NCBI GenBank assembly: GCA_052246995.1
Contig: JBQPWD010000002.1
Location: 96,001-160,000, forward strand
Source of the DNA: Candidatus Bathyarchaeota archaeon
GTDB taxonomy: Archaea; Thermoproteota; Bathyarchaeia; Hecatellales; Hecatellaceae
Direction of reading: 5' to 3'
Length of the DNA stretch: 64,000 bases
A program made the translations under genes and the position numbers. A model generated the notes under the pieces. The model saw nothing but the letters and a program-made list of their open reading frames with translations. It ran no database searches and had not been told where the DNA came from. Of the stretch, positions 46,305-64,000 are shown one piece after another (within the stretch, counting starts at the first letter, position 1; every line of letters begins with the position of its first letter).

Positions 46305-47567
46305 TTGAACTTTTTTCAAAAATGCTTGGAATGTGGTAGGTCTTATGAAAACCATAAGATTATTTATAGCTGTCCAAGCTGTAACAACCCAATTGAAATT
46401 ACACTTAACATTGAAGAATTAAAAGAAAAAGTATCAAAGACTCTGTTTGCAAATAAAAGTATTTATACAATGTGGCGTTACATAGAACTTCTTCCAATTT
46501 CCCCAAAAAACGTGTACTCACTTGGAGAGGGATTCACGCCAACAGTAAAAAGTAGAAATTTAGCTGAACATCTTAAAATTAGTAAACTTAACTTTAAACT
46601 TGATTTTTTAAACCCAACAGGGTCATTTAAGGATAGAGGAGCATCAATTCTTATTTCCAAAGCTAAGGAGTTTAAAACTAAGGCTGTTGTTATTGATTCT
46701 TCTGGAAATGCTGCAGCTTCTCTTGCAGCATATGCTGCAAGAGCAAATTTACAATGTTATGTTTTTATACCAGCGTACGTAAGCATAGGTAAAGTTGTCC
46801 AAGCAATGATGAGCAACGCTTTTGTTGTTAAGGTTGATGGTACAAGAAGTGAAGCTTACGAAGCAGCGTTAATGGCTCATAAAGAATATGGCTGGTATTA
46901 TTGTGGTTTTCAACTAAATCCCTATCTCTACGAGGGAAACAAAACTATAGGTTACGAAATTTACGAACAATTTAATTGGGAACCTCCAGACTGGGTTGTA
47001 TTTCCAGTTGGTACTGGTAGCGCTTTTCTTGGATGCTGGAAAGGGTTGAAAGAATTTTATAACCTAGGTTTAGCAGATAAACTTCCTTCGCTTGTCTGTA
47101 TTCAATCTGAAGGATGCGCACCAATAGCTAAAGCTTACCTTAAAGGTTTGGATACCATAATGCCTGTAAACCCTCATAAAACCATTGCTGAAGGGTTAAT
47201 GATACCGTCCCCTATTAGAGGACGGTATGTTTTGGCATCTATCAAAGAAAGTAATGGTTTGGCAGAAGTTGTTTCTGATAATGAAATTGCTGAAGCTATG
47301 AAACTTCTAGCTAAGTATGAAGGAATCTTTATCGAACCTTCAGCTGCGGCTGCCTTCGCTGGAGTTAGAAAACTCGTTAACTCTGGAGAAATAGGTAGAG
47401 ATGAAAGTATTCTTTGTATACTAACTGGTAGCGGATTAAAAACCCAAGAAATATGTAAAGGCTTTTTTAAAGAGCCGGTCATAATTAAGGCTTCAATTAC
47501 AAGTTTAAGGGAAATATTTAATAAAAAAGGAGAAGTTTCTAGTCAAATTTTTTTGGAGGATGCTTAA
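46305..47567 (+). CDS. Threonine synthase-like PLP enzyme (second paralog)
   Basis: N-terminal Zn ribbon, LGEG.TP, NPTGSFKDRG, SSGNAA, EPSAA. Confidence 0.85.
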   Translation: MNFFQKCLECGRSYENHKIIYSCPSCNNPIEITLNIEELKEKVSKTLFANKSIYTMWRYIELLPISPKNVYSLGEGFTPTVKSRNLAEHLKISKLNFKLDFLNPTGSFKDRGASILISKAKEFKTKAVVIDSSGNAAASLAAYAARANLQCYVFIPAYVSIGKVVQAMMSNAFVVKVDGTRSEAYEAALMAHKEYGWYYCGFQLNPYLYEGNKTIGYEIYEQFNWEPPDWVVFPVGTGSAFLGCWKGLKEFYNLGLADKLPSLVCIQSEGCAPIAKAYLKGLDTIMPVNPHKTIAEGLMIPSPIRGRYVLASIKESNGLAEVVSDNEIAEAMKLLAKYEGIFIEPSAAAAFAGVRKLVNSGEIGRDESILCILTGSGLKTQEICKGFFKEPVIIKASITSLREIFNKKGEVSSQIFLEDA

Positions 47568-48636
47568 GGGTTGGCAATAAATGGTCGATAAGAACGTTTG
47601 CAACCACCGCTTCGACAATAGGAACAGCTCTAGGTATAAAGCATACGTCGTATCTCCCCTTAATCCTTAATTCTGTATTTTCCATTTTTAAAAGATCAAC
47701 AGTTTTCTGAAATTTTGGTATGGAAGAAGGAGGTTTAAATGCAACCCTAACAATTATAGGCATACCTGTTGATAGGCCTCCAAGAATTCCTCCTGCATTG
47801 TTTGTTAATGTGACAATTTTACCATTAATAACTCTGTATTCATCATTATTTTCAGATCCTCTAAGTCTTGCAGCATTAAAACCAGCTCCAAATTCCACAC
47901 CCTTAACTGCAGGAATACAGAAAAGAAATTTTGCAAGATCAGCATCGAGAGAGTTGAAAATAGGTTCCCCAACACCAGGTGGAACATTAACTGCAAAGCA
48001 CTCAATAATACCCCCAACACTATCGTTTTCTTCCCTAGCCTTTAAAATAACATTCTTCATTTCTTCTTCTACCTCAGGGTCACAGCATCTTAACAAGCTT
48101 TTTTCTGTTTTTTCCTTAACTTCTTCGAATGTAATCCTTTTCTTAACTCTAACTCCGCCAACTTCGATTACATGAGCGTAAACCTCAACACCAAGTTTTT
48201 TAAGAAGTTTTTTTGCTATTGCTCCTGCGGCAACAAATCCTACGGTAATTCGTGACGAAAAAATTCCTCCACCACGGTAGTCATGAAAACCATGATATTT
48301 TATAAATGCAGGATAATCTGCGTGTCCTGGTCTAGGTTTCCACCTAAATTCTTCATATACATTTGAAACAACATCTTTGTTGTATACAATCATACATAGT
48401 GGTGCACCAGTAGTGTAACCATTAAAAACACCTGAAAGAATTTCAACCTTATCCTCCTCAATCCTCTTCGTTGAGAATAAATCTTTACTTGGTCTTCTTT
48501 TGTCAAGCTCCTTTTGAATGTCATCTTCACTTAAAGGTAGTCCTGGAGGACATCCATCAACAATAACGCCTACACATTTACCGTGACTTTCGCCAAAAAT
48601 TGTTAAAATAAAATTTCTTCCTATACTGTTTGTCAT
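47539..48636 (-). CDS. aroC: Chorismate synthase
   Basis: GESHG, RPGHAD, RGGG, GGILGG, RAVPIVEA. Confidence 0.96.
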   Translation of the reverse strand: MTNSIGRNFILTIFGESHGKCVGVIVDGCPPGLPLSEDDIQKELDKRRPSKDLFSTKRIEEDKVEILSGVFNGYTTGAPLCMIVYNKDVVSNVYEEFRWKPRPGHADYPAFIKYHGFHDYRGGGIFSSRITVGFVAAGAIAKKLLKKLGVEVYAHVIEVGGVRVKKRITFEEVKEKTEKSLLRCCDPEVEEEMKNVILKAREENDSVGGIIECFAVNVPPGVGEPIFNSLDADLAKFLFCIPAVKGVEFGAGFNAARLRGSENNDEYRVINGKIVTLTNNAGGILGGLSTGMPIIVRVAFKPPSSIPKFQKTVDLLKMENTELRIKGRYDVCFIPRAVPIVEAVVANVLIDHLLPTLKHPPKKFD

Positions 48637-48690
48637 GACAAAAATGTAGAATACTTAACAAATATTAAGGTTTACCTCCTGTAGAAACCA

Positions 48691-49974
48691 TCAACCTTTA
48701 ATTTCTATCCTGCCTCCAATCTTAGCTAGGTCTTCGAAAAAACTAGGATAGGATTTTTTGACACAATCACTATTAAGAATAACTGTTTCTCCTTCAGCTC
48801 TTAAAGCTGCAACTGCACATGCCATAGCAATTCTATGATCATTATGTGGGTTGATGATTGCTCCCTTAAGCTTACATTCTCCTTTAACAATCAAGTTATC
48901 TTCTAAAACTTTAATCTGTGCATTCATCTTTGAAAGTTCAAAAGTTATTACGTTTAAACGGTCTGATTCTTTGATTCTTAGCCTCTTAACGTTTCTTATT
49001 ATTGTTTCTCCTTTAGCGTAGCATGCTAAAACGGCATAAACTGGAACAAGGTCAGGGGTATCTTTTGCATCAACCTCCACACTAGTTAACTCACCACCTA
49101 AAACTTCAACATAATTTTCTCCACAATGAATTTTTACCCCCATCTTTTTTAAAGTGTTGATTATTTCTACATCTGGTTGAGTTTTAAGTGAAGGATAGAG
49201 ATTTTTGAATTTTACATTAGAGTTTGTAATTGCTGCAGCGGCAATAAGGAATGAAGCAGAAGAAAAGTCTCCAAAAATTTTATGGGTATAAGGTTTATAA
49301 TTCTGGTTTGATGGGATGTAGTATGATTCATGGTTACCTAAAACTTTAACGTCAATTCCATGTCTTTTAACAACTTCCAACGTTAACTCTACATACGGCT
49401 TGGACTCAAGAGGAGTTTTTACTTCTATAAAACTGTCATTTTTAGCTAAGGGGCATATAAAAATTAAAGCAGAAACAAACTGTGAACTTACATCACCAAC
49501 AATTGAAGATTTTCCTCCAACAACTCTTCCTCCGTACACTGTTACTGGTGGAAAACCATCAGTTGATTCACAATTTACCCCTAACATCCTCAAGGCATCA
49601 ATAAGAGGATAGATTGGTCTTTTTAGAAGACTACCCTCACCAGTTAAGATTGTTTTACCCTCCGCTAGACTAGCAAATGCTGTCATAAATCTGATGGTTG
49701 TGGCTGAAAGTTTACAGTTTACTGGCTTACTTGGTGCAGTTAGCTTACAATCTCCATCAACAATTAGCATTTTTTCATTTGCCACAATTTTTACACCAAA
49801 ATTTTTGCAACTATTAATAGTTGCAAGTGTATCATCAGAATAAAGCGGTTCTAAAATTTTAGATTCCCCCTTACTAAGAGCCGACGCAACAACAGCCCTA
49901 TGAGTATAGCTTTTTGAGGGGGGAATTTCAACACATCCATCTAGATTTTCAGTTTTTTTAACAACAACTATCAT
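48691..49974 (-). CDS. aroA: EPSP synthase
   Basis: PPSKSYTHR, SSQFVSAL, LRIKESDR, DHRIAM, KSYP. Confidence 0.96.
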   Translation of the reverse strand: MIVVVKKTENLDGCVEIPPSKSYTHRAVVASALSKGESKILEPLYSDDTLATINSCKNFGVKIVANEKMLIVDGDCKLTAPSKPVNCKLSATTIRFMTAFASLAEGKTILTGEGSLLKRPIYPLIDALRMLGVNCESTDGFPPVTVYGGRVVGGKSSIVGDVSSQFVSALIFICPLAKNDSFIEVKTPLESKPYVELTLEVVKRHGIDVKVLGNHESYYIPSNQNYKPYTHKIFGDFSSASFLIAAAAITNSNVKFKNLYPSLKTQPDVEIINTLKKMGVKIHCGENYVEVLGGELTSVEVDAKDTPDLVPVYAVLACYAKGETIIRNVKRLRIKESDRLNVITFELSKMNAQIKVLEDNLIVKGECKLKGAIINPHNDHRIAMACAVAALRAEGETVILNSDCVKKSYPSFFEDLAKIGGRIEIKG

Positions 49975-49977
49975 ATT

Positions 49978-50847
49978 TTACACCAGAATACTCGATTTTT
50001 TATTGTTAACATTTGCTACCAGAATTTCTTCACCATACTTTTTCCAAACATCCAGAACATCGTCAAGCTTATGATTTTCCACAACAGCTACAACAGCAGG
50101 ACCCTTACCACTTAAACCTGAAGCTATAGCCCCCGCGTTTAAAGCATCAAAAACAATGTCTGTCTTGTATCCAAGAATTGATGAATAAAGCAAACCGTTT
50201 AAGGTTAAAGCCTCCCAGTATTTTCTGTTTAAAGCCCTTTCAAATGCAATTTTAACGTACGGTGCTATTAATTTAACCTTTTTAGCGTTAACACTTACCG
50301 TGTAGGTTTTTTTCTTCGGTACATAAATTAAAACTTTATACTTAGTTGCAACTTTTTCCCTTCTGATCATTTTATGCTTAACGTTATCTGTTACAACAAC
50401 TCCGCCAAAGTAGGAGGCACATACATCATCAAAAGCACCTGTAATGGTTGTTTTTGCTCTAAAAGCAGCTTTAACACTAAGATTAATGATTGTTTCATCA
50501 TCTAAACTTTTACCTAAGGCTGTAAGTGTTGCGAGAATAATAGCGTTTGCAGCAACACTACTGCTTTTTAAGCCCCTAGCAATAGGTATGTTTGACATCG
50601 TTTCAACTTTTGCACCAAACTTTTCTTTAACACCAAAATAATCAAAAACAACTTTAACAGCTTCCTCAATAAGTTTGGTATCCTCGTTGTTACTGGAAAG
50701 TATTCTTCCTCTAACAACGCCAGCTTCATTGGTTAATTCAACTTTTGCCTCTGTTTTTAAGTCTAAACCAAAAGCAGCACCCTTACCTATCGCTATAGCA
50801 TTAACTATTGTCGCTGCACCATAAGCGATAGCTTTACCGTAACTCAT
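49978..50847 (-). CDS. aroK: Archaeal (GHMP) shikimate kinase
   Basis: TIVNAIA.GKG, P.ARGLKSSS, TGAFDD, SGKGP. Confidence 0.93.
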   Translation of the reverse strand: MSYGKAIAYGAATIVNAIAIGKGAAFGLDLKTEAKVELTNEAGVVRGRILSSNNEDTKLIEEAVKVVFDYFGVKEKFGAKVETMSNIPIARGLKSSSVAANAIILATLTALGKSLDDETIINLSVKAAFRAKTTITGAFDDVCASYFGGVVVTDNVKHKMIRREKVATKYKVLIYVPKKKTYTVSVNAKKVKLIAPYVKIAFERALNRKYWEALTLNGLLYSSILGYKTDIVFDALNAGAIASGLSGKGPAVVAVVENHKLDDVLDVWKKYGEEILVANVNNKKSSILV

Positions 50848-50869
50848 ACACTTTCTCCAAACTAGAAAT

Positions 50870-51748
50870 TTAATCTTTCTTCAAGTTTTTAAGAACAACT
50901 TTAAACATTTCTTCGGTAGGCGGTTTTCTTTCAAACCATATCTCAAAAGCCTTAGCAGCTTGGTACACTAACATATTGATACCTTCCACTACCTTTACAC
51001 CCTTTTTCTTGGCCTCGGTAAGTAGTCTTGTCTTTAAAGGTTCATATATTATGTCAAAAACAACTATACCTGGCTTAATAAAATCTTTATTAACAGGTGT
51101 TTCCCAAATTTTAGGATACATCCCAACAGATGTTGCATTTATCAGGACATCAGCGTCTTCAAGCTCATTTTTAAGATTTAAATCATCTAACTTTAAACCT
51201 TTAGCTTTTATGTTAAAGTTCATCGTTAAGGATTTTTCTATTTCTACCGCTTTTTCTACAGTCCTATTAAGTATTACTATTTCTCCACCTCTACCAAGTT
51301 TCTCCAATTGTTGAGCAAGTGTAAAGGCTATTGATTTTCCAGCACCTCCAGCCCCTATAACCACCACCTTCTTTCCCTTAAGCTCCACATTACTATGTTT
51401 AAGAGCCTCTAAAGCACCAATACCGTCAGTATTATATCCTACAAGTTTCTCGTCAACGTTTTTCACGGTATTTACAGCACCGATTTTCTCAGCTAAACTA
51501 TCCAACTCATCAAGTAGGGGTATTATTAAAGTTTTATAGGGCATTGTGACGTTAAATCCTGAAACATTTAAACTTCTTAAACCATTAACAGCCCTTTCAA
51601 GGTTTTCTCTTGAAACATTAAAGGCAAGGTAAACAGCATTTATACCAAGTTTCTCAAATATGGCATTATGAATTACTGGACTTAACGAGTGTTGAACAGG
51701 GTTACCTATTAGACAATATAATTTTGTTTTACCGTTGATTAGCCTCAA
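50870..51748 (-). CDS. aroE: Shikimate dehydrogenase
   Basis: HSLSP, NVTMPYK, GAVNT, NTDG, GAGGA. Confidence 0.95.
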   Translation of the reverse strand: MRLINGKTKLYCLIGNPVQHSLSPVIHNAIFEKLGINAVYLAFNVSRENLERAVNGLRSLNVSGFNVTMPYKTLIIPLLDELDSLAEKIGAVNTVKNVDEKLVGYNTDGIGALEALKHSNVELKGKKVVVIGAGGAGKSIAFTLAQQLEKLGRGGEIVILNRTVEKAVEIEKSLTMNFNIKAKGLKLDDLNLKNELEDADVLINATSVGMYPKIWETPVNKDFIKPGIVVFDIIYEPLKTRLLTEAKKKGVKVVEGINMLVYQAAKAFEIWFERKPPTEEMFKVVLKNLKKD

Positions 51749-51751
51749 AAA

Positions 51752-52444
51752 TTAAGCACCAATAATACTAAAAATTTTTTTTAATTCATTAATAGTCAAC
51801 TGTCCCTTAGCTGATTCCTTTCCTTTAAGTAGTGAAGCGTAAGTATACTCTCCACCAAAAATTGGGGATAAAATTCTTGATGGAACACCTAATTTTCCCA
51901 TACAAAAAGAAACAATTCTCCACTTTTTTGATGCTTTAGATAAGAAACTTAAACATTCTAGGTTATCCTCTAACCTTTTTGCTGTAAAAATGATTTTTAA
52001 AATATCAGCTTTTATATTCACCATTCGTCTAAACAATTTAAACATTTCGCTAATTGTTGGAGTTAACTTGAAGTTGTGATGTGAAACTATTGTTTTACAT
52101 CCAAGGTTTTTTATCTCTGCTATATACTGTTCTACTTTTTCTACCGAAAATTCCATGTCCACATAATCAAAGTTACATTGAGCTGCTTTTAAAAGAACAT
52201 TTAACCTATCATTTTCAGGTTGAGTTGAATATCCACCTTCCCCTATAGGCCTATTTGTTGCTATTAATGGTAAACTTGTTGTTTCTCTAACTTTTTTTAA
52301 ATCAAAATTTGTTAAATTCTTAACGTAGTCTATTCTCAGCTCTGCAAGGTCAGCTTCATCTTTTTCAGCTTTAACTAGCATTTTTTCTACTTCTTTAATA
52401 CTTCTTCCGATAATAACAACACAGATTTTGGCTTTATCTTTCAA
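51752..52444 (-). CDS. aroD: Type I 3-dehydroquinate dehydratase
   Basis: ELRID, EGG, SHHNF..TP, FCMG..G..SR, GQ; likely TTG start 52444 after GAGGA. Confidence 0.92.
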   Translation of the reverse strand: MKDKAKICVVIIGRSIKEVEKMLVKAEKDEADLAELRIDYVKNLTNFDLKKVRETTSLPLIATNRPIGEGGYSTQPENDRLNVLLKAAQCNFDYVDMEFSVEKVEQYIAEIKNLGCKTIVSHHNFKLTPTISEMFKLFRRMVNIKADILKIIFTAKRLEDNLECLSFLSKASKKWRIVSFCMGKLGVPSRILSPIFGGEYTYASLLKGKESAKGQLTINELKKIFSIIGA

Positions 52445-53510
52445 TAACTGATTCCTCTTTGACAAGGGTACCAAAATGTCTTCCACCAGGATTCCAGTAA
52501 ACTAAAACTTCATCATCGGGTTTAAGGTCTCTTATAGACTTTGAACCGTCTCTTGTAACTAAAAATATTGTTTCAGCGTTTTGTACAATTGTTTTAACAA
52601 TGTTACCTTCAACCTCAGCTTCTACAAGCATTAACGGTCTTTTCTCAATTTTTACACGTGCAATAGTTGTAACTCTAAAATTTCCATTTCTATCAACAAT
52701 TAAAACTTCATCACCAGCTTTTAACTCAGAGAGATATCGAGTTTTGTTTCCTGGTGTAAGTAAGTAAAGGGATACAGGTCCAGCGTTAACCCTAAACGGT
52801 CTAGGTTCAACATAAGGATTTTCAAAAACTTCAGCTTGAATAAGAAAAAGTCCTGCAGATTGGCAACCAACAAGCATTCCCTCTCCTCTGTTCATAAGCT
52901 CACAAGTATCTATACAAACACGGTCTCCTAAACCAAGTTCTCTACATCCAATAATTTTAGCCTGTTTAAGCTCTAATCTTCTTAATTTTTCCTCCTCAAT
53001 AATTTTTGCAACACCCACCAGAATTTTAGGCTCGTTTGTCTTTAAAATCAAGCCATCAACACCGATTTCTAAAGTTTTCATCATTAACTTTGCTTCTTCG
53101 ACGCTGGAAACTTCAACTAAAAGCTTACTCCTTCTATGGACCTTTGCTATAAGGTTCTCCAATGGAATAACTTTCCAGTTTAAACATCGGATGATGATGT
53201 AATCAACATTCTTCTCAGCAGCCTCAACCACCTTCTTTTCGTCACTTCCGCTTGTTATATTTACTAATAGGCAAACCTTTTTTCCGCTATTCTTTAAACT
53301 CGTCATCAATTCTTCATCAATTTTATCCAAAAAAACTATTTCATTGTTTATATCTTTAGATGTAACAGTAAGTCCCAAGGATTTTATGCAAGAAGCCAGG
53401 TTCTTATTTGACGTAATAACTCTACAAGCTACCTTTTTTGATGCCTCTAAAAGCGTATTTTTAAATTCTTCCTGTATAGAGTCTTCAATGCTAACCCACA
53501 GTTCCTTCAA
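52434..53510 (-). CDS. aroB': 3-dehydroquinate synthase II (AroB')
   Basis: WKVIPLENLIA, GDRVCIDT, RPFRVNAG, YLSEL, QNAET, GRHFG. Confidence 0.95.
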   Translation of the reverse strand: MKELWVSIEDSIQEEFKNTLLEASKKVACRVITSNKNLASCIKSLGLTVTSKDINNEIVFLDKIDEELMTSLKNSGKKVCLLVNITSGSDEKKVVEAAEKNVDYIIIRCLNWKVIPLENLIAKVHRRSKLLVEVSSVEEAKLMMKTLEIGVDGLILKTNEPKILVGVAKIIEEEKLRRLELKQAKIIGCRELGLGDRVCIDTCELMNRGEGMLVGCQSAGLFLIQAEVFENPYVEPRPFRVNAGPVSLYLLTPGNKTRYLSELKAGDEVLIVDRNGNFRVTTIARVKIEKRPLMLVEAEVEGNIVKTIVQNAETIFLVTRDGSKSIRDLKPDDEVLVYWNPGGRHFGTLVKEESVIER

Positions 53511-53511
53511 T

Positions 53512-54300
53512 TTAGCCCTCCTTAAGAATTTTTAATGCTCTTTCAACGTCAGAATTTTCATGTACAATAGCATTTAACGCCTTAACCATTTTTGCTGGGT
53601 CTTCATGTTGAAAAACATTTCTACCAATAGATACTCCTACTGCTCCAGCTTCAATAGAATCATAAACCATACTTAAAAATTCAACTTCATTCTTGGTTTT
53701 TGGTCCTCCAGCAATAACTATTGGAACAGGACAGCTTTCAACAACCTCTCTAAAGCTTTTAATACTTCCAGTATAGTTTGTTTTCACAATATCCGCGCCT
53801 AGTTCAGCTCCAACTCTTGCAGCATGCTTAACAAGCTCAACATCATGCTCATTTTGAATCTTTGGTCCTCGAGGGTACATCATTGCAAGTAAGGGTATAC
53901 CAAATTCTGCAGCTTTATCAGCAATTTTACCAAGATATTCTAACATTCTTGGTTCTTGAGTTGCTCCAACGTTAACATGTACAGACACTCCATCAGCACC
54001 AAGTCTTAAAGCCTGTTTTATACTGCAAACCTTAACCTTCCAGTGTAAATCAGGGCCTAAACTTGTACTTCCTGAAAGATGAACTATAATACCCATCTTT
54101 CCAAAGTTTACCCTACTAGCAATACCTTTATGAACAACAACAGCATCAGCTTCCCCAAGAATAAGCCTATCAGCTATCCATTGCATGTTTACAATTCCTT
54201 TAACAGGTCCAATAGATACTCCGTGATCCATTGGAACAATAACTGTTTTTCCATTACTTCTAAAAATTCTACTTAACCTTCTTTTTTTACCGATCTCCAA
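53512..54300 (-). CDS. aroA': 2-amino-3,7-dideoxy-D-threo-hept-6-ulosonate synthase (AroA')
   Basis: PMDHG, MMYPRG, ELGADIVKT, AGGPK, GRNVFQ; adjacent to aroB'. Confidence 0.92.
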   Translation of the reverse strand: MEIGKKRRLSRIFRSNGKTVIVPMDHGVSIGPVKGIVNMQWIADRLILGEADAVVVHKGIASRVNFGKMGIIVHLSGSTSLGPDLHWKVKVCSIKQALRLGADGVSVHVNVGATQEPRMLEYLGKIADKAAEFGIPLLAMMYPRGPKIQNEHDVELVKHAARVGAELGADIVKTNYTGSIKSFREVVESCPVPIVIAGGPKTKNEVEFLSMVYDSIEAGAVGVSIGRNVFQHEDPAKMVKALNAIVHENSDVERALKILKEG

Positions 54301-54314
54301 AGGTTTACACCTTT

Positions 54315-55364
54315 TTAAACATATCCTTCTGATTTAAGGAGTTCAGCATTAAGTATGGAGCATCCTGCTGCGCCCCTAATAAGGTTATGTCCTAAAACAA
54401 CATACTTTACACAATCAAAAACTTTGTCATATCTTACCCTTCCAACAACAACAGCCATACCACCACCAGCCATTCTATCAATTCTTGGTTGAGGACGGTT
54501 ATCTTCAGGTCTAACAATTATTGGAGGATGAGGAGCTGTTGGAAGTTTAAGTTTTTGTGGTGCTCCTTCAAAGTTTTTCATCGCTTCAATTATTTCATCG
54601 GGTTTTACCTTCTTTTCTGTTTCAACAAATACAGCTTCAACATGTCCATCAATTGTTGGAACTCTATGACAGCTTGCAGAAACCTTAAAATTTGCATGTT
54701 GATGAGGTAAACCCATTATTTTTAAGGTTTCTCTTTCCACCTTTTCTTCTTCATCTTTAATGAAGGGTATAATGTTGTCAATAATGTCTAATGATGCAAC
54801 CCCAGGATAGCCAGCACCGGAAACAGCTTGCATTGTTGAAACTACGACACGTTTTAAACCAAAGTTGTCATATATTGGCTTTAATGATAAAGTTAGTATT
54901 GCTGTTGTACAATTTGGATTTGTAACTATAGCACCATCCCAGTTTCTTTTTTTACGTTGTTTATCAATCATGCTGACATGGTCAGCATTTACCTCAGGAT
55001 TTAATAGTGGAACATCATCATCCATTCTGTGAGAACTCGCGTTACTTAAAACTATAAACCCGTTTTTTGCAAATTCCTCCTCAATTTGGTAAGCAGCATC
55101 AGAAGGAAGGGCTGAAAAAATAACGTCCACATCCTCATTCTTAAACAGGTTAGGGTCCAAGGGTTTAACCTCTAATTCCCTAGTTTTGCTGGAAAAATCT
55201 TCACTACTTCCCTTAACAGTTTCACCGTATGTCCTGCCTGCAGATTTTTCGGAAGCTGCTACGCTTTTTAACTCAAACCATGGATTTTTTTCTAAAAGCT
55301 TAACAAATTTTTGCCCAACTAGTCCAGTTGCACCTAAAACACCAGCTTTAATTCTTCCAGTCAA
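54315..55364 (-). CDS. asd: Aspartate-semialdehyde dehydrogenase
   Basis: GATGLVG, NPNC, QAVSGAG, HNLIRGAAG. Confidence 0.96.
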   Translation of the reverse strand: MTGRIKAGVLGATGLVGQKFVKLLEKNPWFELKSVAASEKSAGRTYGETVKGSSEDFSSKTRELEVKPLDPNLFKNEDVDVIFSALPSDAAYQIEEEFAKNGFIVLSNASSHRMDDDVPLLNPEVNADHVSMIDKQRKKRNWDGAIVTNPNCTTAILTLSLKPIYDNFGLKRVVVSTMQAVSGAGYPGVASLDIIDNIIPFIKDEEEKVERETLKIMGLPHQHANFKVSASCHRVPTIDGHVEAVFVETEKKVKPDEIIEAMKNFEGAPQKLKLPTAPHPPIIVRPEDNRPQPRIDRMAGGGMAVVVGRVRYDKVFDCVKYVVLGHNLIRGAAGCSILNAELLKSEGYV

Positions 55365-55367
55365 AAC

Positions 55368-56603
55368 TCAACCACCCTTCAACAACCCGGATTTAGATAA
55401 ACTTTCCTTTATAAGCAAGAAAGCTTTTTCTTTATCATTCCAATGTATAAATAGTCTTACAGATGAGCTTACCGTTATAAGTCCGTAAAGGTTTATACTA
55501 TTTAAGCTGAGTGGTGCAACAACAGTATCAATAATTCCCGGAGTTTCTTCAAGGTCATGTCCTGAAATAGTTATCTGGGATAATGGTTCAAAACTATGAA
55601 TAGCTTTAGCAATTTTTTCATTCCTTATTAAACTATGGAGCTTGTTAATAAATTCTGGCATACATTCTTCAATGTAAAGAATAAGGGATGGATAGGAAAA
55701 TGTCAAACCTAAGAGCTTCTCTAAGGGTAATTCCTCAGATAGAATTTTGGGTAACGTAGTTGCCGGAGAAATTTCTTTACCTACTATAGTTATCATAGAA
55801 ACAGGTTTGTTGTTTAATACAACCTTTAAACCTAAGTTTATTTCGCCTTTAATAATTGTTCCACCTGAGAAATCTTCGTTTAAACCTACTACTCTAACCG
55901 TAATCTCGTTTTTTGCATATTTTAACGCTTTTGGATGAAGAACCTTTGCTCCAGCGGAACTCAAAGTGTACATTTCCTCAGCATCTAAAACATTTATTTT
56001 TTCAGGGTTAGAAACTTTTTTTGGATCTGCCGAGAGAATTCCACCAACATCTTTAACAAAAATAACTTCATCAGAATTTAAACATCTTCCAAGAACCATA
56101 GCGGTGATGTCGCTTCCACCTCTACCTAAGGTTGTAACTTTACCTTCAGGAGATAAACCTATAAAGCCAGGTATAACTACAACATATCCTTTATCAATTA
56201 AAGGTTTGATTTTTTCCAAGATAGCATTCTCAGTCTTATCAAGTAGGACTTCCGCATTTCCATAATTTGAGTCGGTATAAATTGGCCAGAGGTTATCTAG
56301 AGGATCCAAACCTACAACTTTTAAACCTAAAGCCTTTAATGCAACACTCATTAAACGCGTTGCGGTCCGTTCACCCATTGATAAAACCTCATCAAGCTCA
56401 GATTTTCCAAGGTTGTTTAATGAGATTTCATGAGCTGTTTTAAGAAGTTGGTCGGTTACACCAGCTAAAGCTGAAACCACAACAACAATTTTGGTGCCTT
56501 TTTTAACTTCTTTAGCAATTTTTTCAGCAGCCAGCGTAAAATCTTTTGAAGATGCTAGTGTAGAACCACCAAATTTTACAACAATTGTTTTAGCATTTTT
56601 CAT
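55368..56603 (-). CDS. Aspartate kinase heading the shikimate operon
   Basis: KFGGS, VVSA, SMGE, TLGRGGSD, ADP, GAKVLH, C-terminal ACT-like region. Confidence 0.92.
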   Translation of the reverse strand: MKNAKTIVVKFGGSTLASSKDFTLAAEKIAKEVKKGTKIVVVVSALAGVTDQLLKTAHEISLNNLGKSELDEVLSMGERTATRLMSVALKALGLKVVGLDPLDNLWPIYTDSNYGNAEVLLDKTENAILEKIKPLIDKGYVVVIPGFIGLSPEGKVTTLGRGGSDITAMVLGRCLNSDEVIFVKDVGGILSADPKKVSNPEKINVLDAEEMYTLSSAGAKVLHPKALKYAKNEITVRVVGLNEDFSGGTIIKGEINLGLKVVLNNKPVSMITIVGKEISPATTLPKILSEELPLEKLLGLTFSYPSLILYIEECMPEFINKLHSLIRNEKIAKAIHSFEPLSQITISGHDLEETPGIIDTVVAPLSLNSINLYGLITVSSSVRLFIHWNDKEKAFLLIKESLSKSGLLKGG

Positions 56604-56776
56604 CCACTAATAACCTCCTGAGGATTTAAAAAAAGCTTAAGCAACAATATTAGAATAGAAATTAAAGAATGGTTTTTTCTAATAGCGAAAAACTTTGTTA
56701 AAGCATGAATAGTTAAAGTAAACTCGATACCTCCTATCCACCACGCAGACCTTCCTAAGATACTTTTAAGTATCAA
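56600..56776 (-). CDS. Candidate 58-aa Trp-Trp leader peptide
   Basis: TTG 56776, MILKSILGRSAWWIGGIEF...QEVISG*, TGA overlaps the aspartokinase ATG (ATGA). Confidence 0.45.
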   Translation of the reverse strand: MILKSILGRSAWWIGGIEFTLTIHALTKFFAIRKNHSLISILILLLKLFLNPQEVISG

Positions 56777-56923
56777 GTTCTTAAGCTTAAATATTTAAGT
56801 TTTATGGTTGAAGGTAAAATTCATTTTCAGCTGAAAATTGAGAAGAGTTTTTATGTTATGAGTGGTTATAAAGTTAAGACATGAAGACTTCGTGGTTATA
56901 GTTAGTTAAGAGGTATAACGTTT

Positions 56924-57271
56924 ATGAGTGGAGATGAAATAAGCATAAACCTTAAGGTGGTATCCATACACCCATTTTTCGATGCATACGGGAATGAGTA
57001 TGTTTGTGTTGAGTTTGGTATTGAAGCTCAAAAACCTCCAGCAGTAATGTCTATGCCTCCCAATATTCCACAAGAATTATCAATAGTCATGCCTATTATA
57101 GCCCAGCTACCTAGAATGCTTTCACAAGGTAAAGTTTACACAAATAGGCTTGTACTTTTTCTTACAGTTCATGAATGGGAAAAAATGGAATATAAGTATC
57201 ATTATGGAGAAGAGGTTGAAATTAGGGTTAACAAGAAAACAGGAGAAATAAAACTAATACCGTTAGGTTAA
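56924..57271 (+). CDS. Arcadin-1-like protein
   Basis: KVVS....D..G..YV..E...E...P...MP...Q..R...RLVLFLT..E...G..VEI pattern recalls Pyrobaculum arcadin-1; similar length; SD GAGGT. Confidence 0.65.
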   Translation: MSGDEISINLKVVSIHPFFDAYGNEYVCVEFGIEAQKPPAVMSMPPNIPQELSIVMPIIAQLPRMLSQGKVYTNRLVLFLTVHEWEKMEYKYHYGEEVEIRVNKKTGEIKLIPLG

Positions 57272-57294
57272 GATCAAAAACTGAACTAAGAAAG

Positions 57295-58239
57295 TTACCT
57301 TCTAGCTTTAACAAACCTAGAAATTTCTGTTCTTATTTGACTGTCACTAATGCCGATAAACACAGTTGCTGTTTTTAGGTCTCCATTTTCAATAAGCGTG
57401 TTAACATGTTGTTTAACAATTTTTTTTGGCCTATAACCTATGCCTAAACCAGACTTCTTAAGTAAAAGGATATCATTAGCCCCATCTCCAATAGCTATAC
57501 ATTTACTTAAATCCGCTTTCTCCTTTTTTGCAATATCCATGAGTGCTTTAAGCTTGTCTTCGGGGCTTAAAATACTACCTTTAAACCTTCCAGTCAAGAC
57601 ACCGTCTTTGATTTCCAGTTTGTTTGCATAAACATACTTTACTCCAAGTTTCTCAGCAATATGATTAGCAAAAATATCAAATCCACCAGTAATTATTGCT
57701 ATTACAAACCCCGCTTTCTTAAGTTCTCCAATAAGGTCCTGAGCACCAGGAGATAGTTCTAGTTTATTCTTCAATTTTTCAAGTTTCCTTAAAGGAAGAC
57801 CTTTAAGGAGAGAAACTCTTTTAGATAAAGCTTCCTTAAAATCCATTTTCCCCTCCATAGCCTTTTTTGTAACATCCTTAACCTTATCCTCAACACCTGC
57901 AAGTTTAGCCATTTCATCAATAATTTCCATGTTTACTAAGGTACCATCCATGTCAAAGGCGATAATCCTCTTCCTCTTCAGATATGTTTTTTCATCCTCG
58001 ACTGATATTCCAGAGCCTAACCTTATTCCTTCATTTTTTAATTCCGATACAAGCTTAGTTAGACTTGTAGTTATGTTTGAAGTATCAACAACCATAACCA
58101 TAACAAACATTTCTCCAAGAATTGACGCCCTACTCTTTAGAATATTTGCATTATACCTGTAAAGAACCTTAGATATTCCCGCAACAATTCCAGGCCTATC
58201 TTTGCCGACCGTTGTAACTATTATTGTACGCCTTCTCAT
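57295..58239 (-). CDS. serB: ACT-domain + phosphoserine phosphatase (HAD)
   Basis: GKDRPGIVA ACT; FDMDGTL, EIIDE, TGGF, GDGAND. Confidence 0.9.
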   Translation of the reverse strand: MRRRTIIVTTVGKDRPGIVAGISKVLYRYNANILKSRASILGEMFVMVMVVDTSNITTSLTKLVSELKNEGIRLGSGISVEDEKTYLKRKRIIAFDMDGTLVNMEIIDEMAKLAGVEDKVKDVTKKAMEGKMDFKEALSKRVSLLKGLPLRKLEKLKNKLELSPGAQDLIGELKKAGFVIAIITGGFDIFANHIAEKLGVKYVYANKLEIKDGVLTGRFKGSILSPEDKLKALMDIAKKEKADLSKCIAIGDGANDILLLKKSGLGIGYRPKKIVKQHVNTLIENGDLKTATVFIGISDSQIRTEISRFVKARR

Positions 58240-58248
58240 AAGCCAAAC

Positions 58249-58530
58249 CTAAGCTGAAACAAGCAGTTTTACAGGATAAACGTGGATTTTTAAGCCTATT
58301 TTTTTTCCTTCCACACTAAGTTTACTAGTTAGTTCATTTAGTTTTTTGTTTAAGTTTGGGTTTAAGAGCTTAACAATCATTGACATCACGAATATGCCTT
58401 GAAGCACTACTTGGTCAAGTTCCTCAATATTTCCCATTAACTCTGAAACTATTGAGGTTACTCTTGCAACAAGCCCAGGCTTGTCTTTACCAATAGCAAC
58501 TATAACAACTTTGCTTTCCATTTCCACCAT
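58249..58530 (-). CDS. Stand-alone ACT-domain protein (UPF0237-like)
   Basis: GKDKPGLVA...NI..LDQ.V..G.F.M. Confidence 0.85.
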   Translation of the reverse strand: MVEMESKVVIVAIGKDKPGLVARVTSIVSELMGNIEELDQVVLQGIFVMSMIVKLLNPNLNKKLNELTSKLSVEGKKIGLKIHVYPVKLLVSA

Positions 58531-58536
58531 TTCTTA

Positions 58537-59628
58537 TTACCCACAACAAATATTCTTTAAATTTTCAATTAAAAAACTGTTTTCTTTTCGGGTTCTAACC
58601 GTAATTCTTAAACAATTTTTAAGCATAGGCATATCACTTACATTCCTCACGATTACTCCTCTTCTAAGAAGACTTTCATAAATATTGTAAACATTAAACT
58701 CGTTAAATCTAACAAGAATAAAGTTTGTGCAAGATGGGTAAACCTGAATACCTTTTACATTTTTAAGTTCTTTTATTAACCACTCTCTCTCACTTAAAAT
58801 GTACTCAATATTCCTTTTAACCACATCAAGGTGTTTTAATACTATGTTTGCAAGTATAAGTGACGGAACACTTAAACTGTTGGGAGGACGCATAATGTTT
58901 AAGATTTGAATAGTCTTAGCATTGGCAACAATGTACCCAACTCTTGCACCAGCTAGGAAAAGTGCTTTAGAAAATGTTCTAAGTATTATTAAATTTTCGT
59001 ACTTGTCAGTGAAATCCACTAAACTTTCACCAGCAAACTCAGCGTAAGATTCATCGACAACAATAGGTATCTCAGGAAAACTCTCCACTAAACTAATAAT
59101 ATCATTTTTAGGTGTTAAATTCCCAGTTGGGTTGTTGGGGTTACATAGAAATATTATTCTGGTGTCTTCATTCACCGTATTCATGAGTTTTTCAACGTCA
59201 TCTGAAAAATCAGTTTTTCTCAAAACCTCAACAATTTTTCCACCCATTGTCTCAACAACAATTCTGTACATAGCGTACGTTGGGCTTGAAATAATAGCAC
59301 TTGTCCCATATTCAACAAAAACTTTGCTTACAATATCTAAAGCTTCATCACAACCAGCGGTTATACAAATTTCGTCAACATCCTTCTTAAGATAATTTGA
59401 TAACTCCTCTCTTAACTCTATGTATGAAGGATCAGGATACTCGTTAATTTTGATATTCTGAATTGTTGATTTAAACTCTTCTACAACTTCTTTTGGAATA
59501 AAAGGCATAGTATTTGTATCAAATCGGATAATCTTGTCAGTAGTTAGACTAAACTTTTTTATAACTTCAACAGGAGATATCTCCCAACTGTATGGTTTAA
59601 ATCCTTTAATAATGCTTCTAATCCTCAT
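58537..59628 (-). CDS. hisC: Histidinol-phosphate aminotransferase family
   Basis: YPDP, CNPNNPTG, DESY.EF, RTFSK..LAGARVGY. Confidence 0.88.
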   Translation of the reverse strand: MRIRSIIKGFKPYSWEISPVEVIKKFSLTTDKIIRFDTNTMPFIPKEVVEEFKSTIQNIKINEYPDPSYIELREELSNYLKKDVDEICITAGCDEALDIVSKVFVEYGTSAIISSPTYAMYRIVVETMGGKIVEVLRKTDFSDDVEKLMNTVNEDTRIIFLCNPNNPTGNLTPKNDIISLVESFPEIPIVVDESYAEFAGESLVDFTDKYENLIILRTFSKALFLAGARVGYIVANAKTIQILNIMRPPNSLSVPSLILANIVLKHLDVVKRNIEYILSEREWLIKELKNVKGIQVYPSCTNFILVRFNEFNVYNIYESLLRRGVIVRNVSDMPMLKNCLRITVRTRKENSFLIENLKNICCG

Positions 59629-63484: not shown

Positions 63485-64000
63485 ATGAAGCTTATTATGA
63501 AGTTTGGAGGAACATCTGTCGCTGATGGGAAAAGAATTTCGCATGTTGCTAATCTTATAGAGGAGTATGCAAAAGAGAATAAAATTGTTGTTGTGGTTTC
63601 AGCTTTAGCTGGTGTAACCGACCAACTTTTTGAAGTTTGTAAAAATGTAATTAAGTGTGAAAAAGGATTTATTGAAGAGTTTATTAAAGAGTTTAGTGAA
63701 AAACATGTTAAAGCAGCATGTAAAGCAGTCTCCAACCCTTATGTTTTAGAAAATGTAAAAGCAACTATTAATGAAACCACGAATGAGCTTAAAAATGTTT
63801 TATATGGAATTTCTTATCTTCGGGAAATTACCCCAAGGATACTAGACTACGTAGTTTCTTTTGGAGAAAGATTGTCAGCTCCAATAGTTTGTGGTGCGTT
63901 AAAAAGTAATGGTATTAAATCAGAATGGTTTACTGGAGGAGATGCTGGAATTGTTACTGATTCAAATTTTGGGAATGCAAATCCGCTTATGGAGTTAACG
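63485..64000 (+). CDS. lysC: Aspartate kinase (5' part; runs off window edge)
   Basis: Not in ORF track; ATG 63485 gives MKLIMKFGGTSV...VVSALAGVTDQL...SFGERLS. Confidence 0.92.
   Translation, partial: MKLIMKFGGTSVADGKRISHVANLIEEYAKENKIVVVVSALAGVTDQLFEVCKNVIKCEKGFIEEFIKEFSEKHVKAACKAVSNPYVLENVKATINETTNELKNVLYGISYLREITPRILDYVVSFGERLSAPIVCGALKSNGIKSEWFTGGDAGIVTDSNFGNANPLMELT

Follow-up and report, generated by a model that had tools for sequence, protein, structure and literature searches.

How does the leader of an archaeal shikimate-pathway operon come to carry two overlapping reading frames, and what might it sense? The question is raised by a locus of Candidatus Bathyarchaeota archaeon (GenBank assembly GCA_052246995.1, contig JBQPWD010000002.1), of which we analysed the 64,000 nucleotides (nt) at forward-strand positions 96,001 to 160,000 (hereafter the window; positions below are counted from its first letter). 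On the minus strand of the window, an operon headed by an aspartokinase gene (AK) is preceded by a leader of about 170 nt. The leader contains a short open reading frame (ORF) with a start codon of its own, called frame f3, and a second frame displaced from it by +1, called frame f2, which is open from a small conserved unit inside f3 to the AK start. We propose that this leader is probably a two-frame device that senses aromatic amino acids. In its full form, in which an unstructured, translated control region would sense charged aromatic tRNAs and its two frames would be linked by a +1 slip of the ribosome, the proposal is tentative and falls somewhat short of an even chance; the slip taken by itself is possible, and we hold it with slightly more reserve.

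The comparison drew on the order of the window, in which 10 of the 14 species genomes carry this AK locus, together with metagenome contigs (L028, L029 and L032) and genome contigs (L033 and L034). Across the class, an AK protein match at 1e-50 was obtained in 223 of 401 sampled genomes; 60 loci were picked by hand, not at random, to spread over the families, and 82 loci with at least 200 nt upstream were classified. The two-frame arrangement, which we call type II, was recognized by inspection at 29 of the 82 loci (30 with L078). In all, the device was found at 32 Bathyarchaeia loci in five families, i.e. the window's own, f22, f16, f26 and one f34 locus; these 32 leaders are related and not independent, and the counts given below should be read with this in mind.

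The feature shared by these leaders is a unit composed of a hexamer (AGGRGG), 6 nt, an NUU codon and a Tyr (UAC or UAU) or Phe (UUC) codon read in f3, which is present in one to three copies per leader and is repeated at a spacing of 18 nt in some families and 15 nt in others. An alignment of 10 upstream regions of the window's family revealed two conserved blocks, the TATA box (TAA..CTTAAATA, in all 10 regions) and, about 30 nt further on, a G-rich element. This family element is single-copy in its own genome (nhmmer E 4.4e-12; next match 0.093), and a scan of that genome for the same device returned 56 units, four of which passed the filters, the other three lying inside coding regions. The diverged copies in other families were missed by nhmmer with the family element, and were later found by eye. 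When Shine-Dalgarno (SD) complementarity was assessed against the genome's own 16S rRNA, its 3' end (..GGATCACCTCCT) was found to be complementary to both AGGAGG and GGTGAT. In families f16 and f26, the hexamer takes the form GGTGRT and the spacer is shortened to 3 nt. With this exchange, f3 encodes Gly-Asp in place of Arg-Arg, and f2 Val-Met in place of Gly-Gly; because it alters the amino acids in both frames, the property that the two hexamers share is pairing with the ribosome. Furthermore, the aromatic codon most often lies 15-16 nt from the anti-SD register.

Frame f3 has the marks of a leader ORF. In each of the 32 type II leaders, the first unit is preceded by a canonical f3 start codon (all 26 of the first set and the 6 added later); in family f22 its position is fixed, while the codon varies among ATG, GTG and TTG. 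Within the window's family, an SD-like run is followed by GTG or ATG, and the ORF spans 16-28 codons and ends 48-107 nt before AK. In the window itself, 7 of the 21 codons are aromatic (4 Tyr and 3 Phe), and over the f3 ORFs as a group 120 of 580 codons are aromatic (20.7%), compared with 4.4% in the AK genes. We tallied 66 slip-type sites, in which NUU, as required by the search definition, is followed by UAC (32), UAU (7) or UUC (27); the codon that would occupy the P site is GUU at 34, CUU at 14, UUU at 10 and AUU at 8 of them, and the window's site is GUU_U at 56723-56720. Tyr codons, the only aromatic ones to be frame-specific, number 47 in f3, 5 in f2 and 11 in frame f1 over the same bases. 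Seven of the 39 Tyr sites have TAT, a change that is synonymous in f3 and turns Thr into Ile or Met in f2. A side observation concerns the leader ORF of L076 in family f26, which contains three successive units ending in Phe, Tyr and Trp-Trp (..KVFGGHVYGDHWW..), the Trp unit having no NUU; this family seems to read out Phe, Tyr and Trp one after another.

Frame f2, on the other hand, is conserved in its openness. In all 14 sequences examined for this property, it is open from the unit to between -18 and +26 nt of the AK start, whereas each of the remaining frames is interrupted by 1-6 stops. Among the 32 leaders, f2 ends within 30 nt of the AK start on either side in 22, is fused in frame to AK in nine, and behaves differently in a single outlier (L078). 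In the window, its TGA (56602-56600) overlaps the AK ATG (56603-56601) as ATGA, just as the earlier note on this DNA, made from the letters alone (the sequence-only reading), had described; the 4-nt stop/start overlap recurs as GTGA in L011 and L032, and is reduced to 1 nt in L036. Dinucleotide shuffles give P values of 0.05-0.41 per sequence for this openness (5.8% of trials for the window), and the open f2 frame in the window sequence alone is weak evidence. The product of the shuffle P values over 12 lineages, by our own multiplication and with lineages that are related and not independent, is about 2e-10. In addition, the codon score of f2 exceeds those of both other frames in 17 of 26 leaders, and in 15 of 26 when stops are left out (binomial P 0.009, the leaders again not being independent). 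On these comparative grounds, selection keeps f2 open from the unit to the AK overlap. A two-frame test without the hexamer proved too permissive, as 50 of 800 controls passed it, and was not used as evidence.

At some loci f2 is the AK frame itself. In families f16 (L018, L084-L087) and f26 (L076, L077, L079, L080), the AK frame extends from the conserved N-terminus 45-60 codons upstream, through a low-complexity linker rich in Ser, Thr, Lys and Pro, into the leader element. In L018 and L086, the 45-50 codons that precede the conserved N-terminus offer AK no further ATG, GTG or TTG in its frame, and translation of f2 is therefore unavoidable at these two loci. The annotated AK starts in f16 and f26 are probably wrong, the true start lying 45-60 codons upstream of the conserved N-terminus.

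Such an arrangement could mean that the product of f2 matters in itself, either as a small protein in the window or as an N-terminal extension of AK, with its conserved F-[ST]-x3-4-F-[TSI] start important in itself. The in-frame fusion at nine of the 32 loci, the codon score that favours f2, and several substitutions in the unit that are synonymous in f2 would agree with a functional peptide. Beyond the unit, however, the f2 peptides cannot be aligned even within the genus, no Pfam family matches the 58-residue ORF to which f2 belongs in the window, and the changes that are synonymous in f3 alter f2. The f2 Phe codon is TTT at all 66 sites, but this is required by the search, since f3 needs a U-first codon. 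We therefore regard a functional f2 peptide as quite improbable.

It is also conceivable that the repeats form an operator for a DNA- or RNA-binding regulator, such as an archaeal TrpY- or TRAP-like protein, and that the small ORFs are by-products. Direct repeats just 3' of the promoter, an element that is single-copy and specific to the AK operon, and ACT-domain genes nearby (57295-58530) are what one would expect of such an operator. Yet it leaves unexplained why f2 is open over 25-45 unalignable codons in 31 of the 32 leaders, why the f3 start is fixed in position, and why AGGRGG and GGTGRT, which share only their complementarity to the 16S tail, are exchanged; moreover, the repeat spacing differs by family, being 18 or 15 nt. 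An operator is accordingly an unlikely explanation, if marginally less so than a functional peptide.

A different sensor had been suggested by the sequence-only reading, according to which a 58-codon ORF on the minus strand (56600..56776, starting at TTG 56776) senses Trp by its TGG TGG codons and controls the operon through a switch between two hairpins. Much of what it described is there: the ORF listing and the translation agree on the ORF, and the TGG TGG codons (56743-56738), the Phe-Phe codons and the run of seven T residues (T7) upstream of AK can all be read in the sequence. The in-frame TGG TGG, however, is found in f2 of one of the 12 family sequences only. In 7 of the 11 others (L004, L028, L005-L008 and L033, the last scored through its near-identity to L004), including both sequences of the same genus, the second TGG position is occupied by TGA, and L009-L011, L013 and L032 contain no tandem Trp. 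Being absent from the other family members, the Trp pair is therefore a change specific to the window. The TTG lies 16 nt past the TATA box and outside the aligned part of the sole RNA contig described below, and the 5' extension from the TTG to the Trp codons is probably untranslated. In the window, this TTG is also the only start available to f2, and it is upstream of the likely transcript start.

The evidence on the transcript is as follows. The TATA box that the sequence-only reading pointed out exists, and the divergent arcadin-like gene has a separate one further upstream. The usual spacing between an archaeal TATA box and the start fits a zone 20-33 nt past the box. In the metatranscriptome run X3, a 328-nt contig aligns to 56437..56759, with five unaligned letters beyond, and joins the leader to AK; no depth was seen in this run over 56792-57300, a stretch that takes in the remaining intergenic DNA and the arcadin-like gene. 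The contig fits a transcript start near 56760-56772, although the run consists of assembled contigs, which cannot prove a start, and DNA carry-over is possible. Two other runs, X1 and X2, are probably DNA, possibly from the source sample, and the raw RNA reads of X4 gave no reads on the stretch and hence no test. A single promoter-like match from a scan with bacterial consensus patterns was set aside as not meaningful for an archaeon.

The proposed hairpin switch fared no better than the Trp codons. The pairings GATACT (56774-56769)/AGTATC (56764-56759) and 56780-56768/56732-56720 do exist in the window, but shuffled versions of the leader have a mean minimum free energy of -33.15, whereas the leader itself reaches only -28.4 (z = +1.24), and of 200 such shuffles 180 are as stable or more so. 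Both pairings have their 5' arm at the predicted transcript start or upstream of it, and the GATACT/AGTATC hairpin is absent from a relative of the same genus. The segment from the f3 stop to AK has a fold z of 0.79, and type II leaders as a whole have a mean fold z of -0.22 (n = 26). No terminator-like site was found by a terminator scan of the window leader, the patterns of which are bacterial consensus and the host archaeal. Likewise, Rfam 15 had no match in the leader; its two hits (E 0.66 and 0.76) lie elsewhere and are at chance level. The comparative data thus already contradict a Trp-sensing 58-codon ORF with a two-hairpin switch, which we consider highly improbable. What survives of the earlier suggestion is the conserved, translated control region and its aromatic theme, and the overlapping frame f3 is the likelier sensor.

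If f3 is the sensor, the leader would operate through ribosomes rather than hairpins; the two-frame form cannot work like E. coli trpL, because it has no hairpins. We suggest that, with aromatic amino acids in good supply, ribosomes would translate f3 to its end and dissociate from the mRNA 75 nt short of AK. A shortage of charged tRNA-Tyr or tRNA-Phe would make a ribosome pause, its P site occupied by GUU and its A site by a Tyr codon that awaits its tRNA. Pairing of its anti-SD with the hexamer would hold the paused ribosome, which could slip by +1 from GUU to UUU and then read f2 across the rest of the leader and the T7 run. On terminating at the AK start, it would raise AK translation by reinitiation and/or keep the RNA polymerase from terminating. 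Transcription in archaea is terminated at oligo-T tracts and by the factor FttA. For the window, f2 translation could act either through reinitiation at the ATGA or by averting termination, be it at the T7 run or through a termination factor. The slipped frame would be AK itself in families f16 and f26, and would carry the ribosome to the AK start in families f1 and f22 and in the window. An NUU_U slip site is suited to such sensing because the codons of all three aromatic amino acids begin with U. Moreover, a slip would have the right sign, as starvation would yield more AK, and would explain why many f2 frames lack a start. The extension to the class, by which at least five Bathyarchaeia families would control the first enzyme of the aromatic pathway by a starvation-triggered +1 frameshift at NUU_UAY/UUC, is possible, though rather less likely than not.

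With respect to the T7 run, T5-T7 runs occur in AT-rich relatives, and T4 or no run in GC-richer ones. The run is not accompanied by a hairpin, and the X3 RNA contig reads through it.

The start codons of f2 bear on the most serious alternative, in which no frameshift is involved: the f3 ribosome would stall at Tyr or Phe codons, and f2, initiated independently at a GTG where present or otherwise at a non-canonical codon positioned by the internal SD-like hexamers, would couple ribosomes to the AK start. A canonical f2 start does precede the first unit in 19 of the 32 leaders, among them all 12 of families f16 and f26, where it is the GTG inside GGTGRT; in addition, the spacing of hexamer and codon resembles that of initiation, stop/start overlaps of the coupling type are present, and one study, in the part available, proposes that bacterial ribosomes reinitiate behind leader peptides (PMC4833913). 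In eight of the 32 leaders, however, f2 has no ATG, GTG or TTG up to the last unit (in five more, such a codon is missing ahead of the first unit), and by our reading there is no conservation of a near-cognate codon at a fixed distance from the hexamer. A stalled ribosome would also be expected to cover the f2 starts, so that starvation would lower AK, the wrong sign for a biosynthetic operon. Stalling without a frameshift is, in our judgement, unlikely, though it deserves more weight than an operator or a functional peptide. Several other routes into f2 were considered and dropped. Neither a -1 shift out of the third frame nor transcriptional slippage at T4-T5 runs is general, and the codon behind the hexamer at which near-cognate initiation would occur is not conserved. 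An ORF over the element on the reverse strand was also rejected, as it has no start and only 27 codons.

A number of observations weigh against the two-frame proposal, and against its slip in particular. The evidence is computational throughout, and the 32 leaders are related and not independent. Total aromatic content is not specific to f3, being 21% there and 18% in f2 over the same bases, and the SD of f3 in the window is imperfect. NUU is missing before the Trp codons of the third unit in family f26 and before one Phe unit, in L080 (AAC UUC), and f2 of the outlier L078 extends 95 nt into AK. The hexamer is separated from the P-site codon by 6 nt (3 nt for GGTGRT), as opposed to 3 nt in the gene of release factor 2 (RF2); a 6-nt spacing is relaxed and initiation-like, and by the rules of E. 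coli it should not push the ribosome by +1. At 34 of the 66 sites the sequence is GUU_U, more often than any other, and CUU_U, the best in E. coli, is found at only 14. Nor is a slip ever strictly needed for AK, since the fused lineages have the f2 GTG inside GGTGRT and the unfused ones, the window included, have an SD and a start of their own at AK; the predicted fold of the window leader leaves the AK SD unpaired, which makes the benefit of f2 translation uncertain. Finally, frameshifting within a leader peptide can be incidental, as described for E. coli pheL in the accessible portion of one paper (PMC3082878).

Among known systems, the closest to the proposed slip is the +1 frameshift of RF2 (prfB), where an ORF1 with a start is continued by a +1 frame that often has none, and where an NUU_U site, a slow A-site codon and an upstream hexamer that pairs with 16S rRNA are likewise found; the window too has a start-less, open +1 frame and NUU in the P-site position. 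The RF2 site is CUU_U, rarely UUU_U, with a 5' SD stimulator, according to excerpts of a 2016 recoding review (PMC5009743). In the window, by contrast, the slow codon is a sense codon for Tyr or Phe instead of UGA, the spacing is 6 nt instead of 3, and GUU is the commonest P-site codon among the leaders. The second frame of the window stops at the start of the next gene, while that of families f16 and f26 encodes the main protein itself, and the slip here is inferred from sequence. The same excerpts state that no utilised 'hungry codon' frameshift was known (PMC5009743). If correct, the device would be the first utilised frameshift of this kind and a translational amino-acid sensor native to archaea, and its hexamer-NUU-Tyr/Phe site would offer a concrete, mutable target for the study of regulated frameshifting in archaeal ribosomes.

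Coupling by termination and reinitiation is reportedly also found in archaea. The leader resembles it in that the f2 stop overlaps the AK start, and departs from it in that the upstream partner is a start-less leader frame and not a gene. Likewise, polycysteine upstream ORFs (uORFs) in mycobacteria are short, rich in the codons of one amino acid, and attenuate the operon behind them; they differ in being bacterial, leaderless and single-frame, as far as the part of the preprint at hand describes them (bioRxiv 10.1101/834739).

A second kind of aromatic leader, which we call type I, was encountered at 41 of the 82 sampled Bathyarchaeia AK loci, in families other than those with the two-frame leaders (L012, L014, L016, L017, L043-L066, L068, L088 and L092-L095). 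Type I was defined as a short ORF with at least six aromatic codons among its last 12 and a stop 35-130 nt before AK. Runs of Tyr and Phe, e.g. NPYYYYYYYCFF, FFSFDYYFYYFN and FFDFFYYYFYFE, are located at the C-terminal end of these ORFs. A strong hairpin begins at the stop codon, often followed by a U run, and then by the SD and AK; their mean fold z is -2.55 (n = 39), in contrast to the value near zero of type II. When the same test was applied to long-ORF controls from the window's own AT-rich genome, 10 of 800 passed, and at least seven aromatic residues within 10 were found at 33 of 87 AK loci versus 2 of 800 controls. One Trp-rich short ORF among the controls (contig C1) turned out to be an alternative frame of a membrane-protein gene. 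Neither type was seen at 12 of the 82 loci (11 without L078), five of which have 4-5 aromatic codons; at four of the loci with neither type (L022-L024 and L026), AK follows directly behind another gene and has asd but no aroA' downstream. Judged by these comparisons, aromatic sensing is a class-wide theme of AK leaders, and translated aromatic leaders, whose ORFs lack annotation, appear to be widespread within a single archaeal class.

The sensing of amino acids by leader peptides is a textbook mechanism in bacteria. The E. coli attenuators trpL, pheL and hisL similarly consist of a short ORF with its own start, placed between promoter and operon and containing codons for the end product; the type I runs of the sister families, with their hairpin and frequent U run, resemble them further. 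The window shares with these attenuators a leader ORF with its own ribosome site, but it belongs to an archaeal host, has no terminator hairpin or supported mutually exclusive pairing, and matches no leader family in Rfam. The few aromatic codons of its leader ORF belong to units set apart from each other, with an SD-like hexamer in front, and another frame, which overlaps the first, leads to the start of the operon. In the literature searched, with subscription journals outside it, we found no leader-peptide attenuation or regulated frameshifting of an archaeal biosynthetic operon. By a term search, neither attenuation nor leader peptide occurs in the retrievable text of a review from 2021 on the coupling of transcription and translation in archaea (PMC8116511), and in two further articles, in the sections available, archaea come up only briefly or among the references (PMC1262725, PMC2965389).

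The operon behind the leader is indeed the aspartokinase-headed shikimate operon that had been named from the sequence alone, since Pfam agrees gene by gene. Its order is AK-asd-aroA'-aroB'-aroD-aroE-aroK-aroA-aroC, with a 411-residue AK followed, after asd, by a DeoC-type aldolase (aroA') and DHQ synthase II (aroB'; DHQS II), and with a GHMP-type shikimate kinase (aroK), EPSP synthase (aroA) and chorismate synthase (aroC) further on. The products of aroA' and aroB' are said to use aspartate semialdehyde. The order AK-(asd)-aroA'-aroB' is kept in relatives, and nearly all of the AK loci fetched adjoin asd, aroA' or aroB'. The genome has a second AK paralogue, with 31% identity to the operon AK, elsewhere on the same contig (G000:C2:159491-160867); because of it, the operon AK looks dedicated to the aromatic route. 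This paralogue lies about 7 kb off on the + strand, covers 63761-64000 of the window and continues past the window end. The positions of the features are listed in Table 1.

Table 1. Features of the AK leader and operon in the window
Feature	Position	Strand	Basis
A-rich stretch resembling a transcription factor B recognition element (56805-56800) and TATA box CTTAAATA (56799-56792)	56792..56805	-	Conserved block
5' extension of the 58-codon ORF (TTG 56776 to TGG TGG), probably untranslated	56738..56776	-	Window-specific; TGA in 7 of 11 other sequences
Likely transcript-start zone	56759..56772	-	20-33 nt past TATA box; end of RNA contig
Imperfect SD of f3, AGGAAGG	56750..56756	-	SD-like G-rich run 4-10 nt before f3 start in family
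f3, 21-codon leader ORF with GTG GTG start and TAG stop, VVDRRYRVYFNYSCFNKVFRY*	56679..56744	-	Start conserved
Conserved unit: AGGAGG, 6 nt, GTT, TAC (Tyr in f3)	56718..56735	-	AGGAGG complementary to 16S 3' tail
f2, conserved-open part of the 58-codon ORF, +1 to f3, from unit to TGA at AK start	56600..56737	-	Openness across relatives
T7 run inside f2, possible oligo-T termination or pause signal	56628..56634	-	25 nt before AK ATG
AK ribosome site: GGAGGT (56618-56613), ATG (56603-56601), overlapping TGA (56602-56600)	56600..56618	-	Read in sequence
Operon AK, asd, aroA', aroB', aroD, aroE, aroK, aroA, aroC	47539..56603	-	Pfam

The surroundings of the operon were also inspected. The divergent neighbour at 56924-57271 (+ strand) matches Pfam Arcadin_1 (E 3.9e-10), and its head-to-head arrangement with the AK operon is kept at seven of the nine other species loci of the family (L004-L008, L010 and L013), as well as in L028 and L033. 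Further upstream, at 57295-59628 on the minus strand, Pfam identifies an ACT+HAD phosphatase-like gene, a stand-alone ACT-domain protein of 93 residues and a class I/II aminotransferase; a small ACT protein beside an amino-acid operon could be a ligand-sensing regulator. Within the AK gene, the 48 bases at 56445-56492 have a depth 2-5 times that of their flanks and coincide with contig breaks in the probable DNA runs X1 and X2, which suggests a repeat or a strain branch point in those assemblies.

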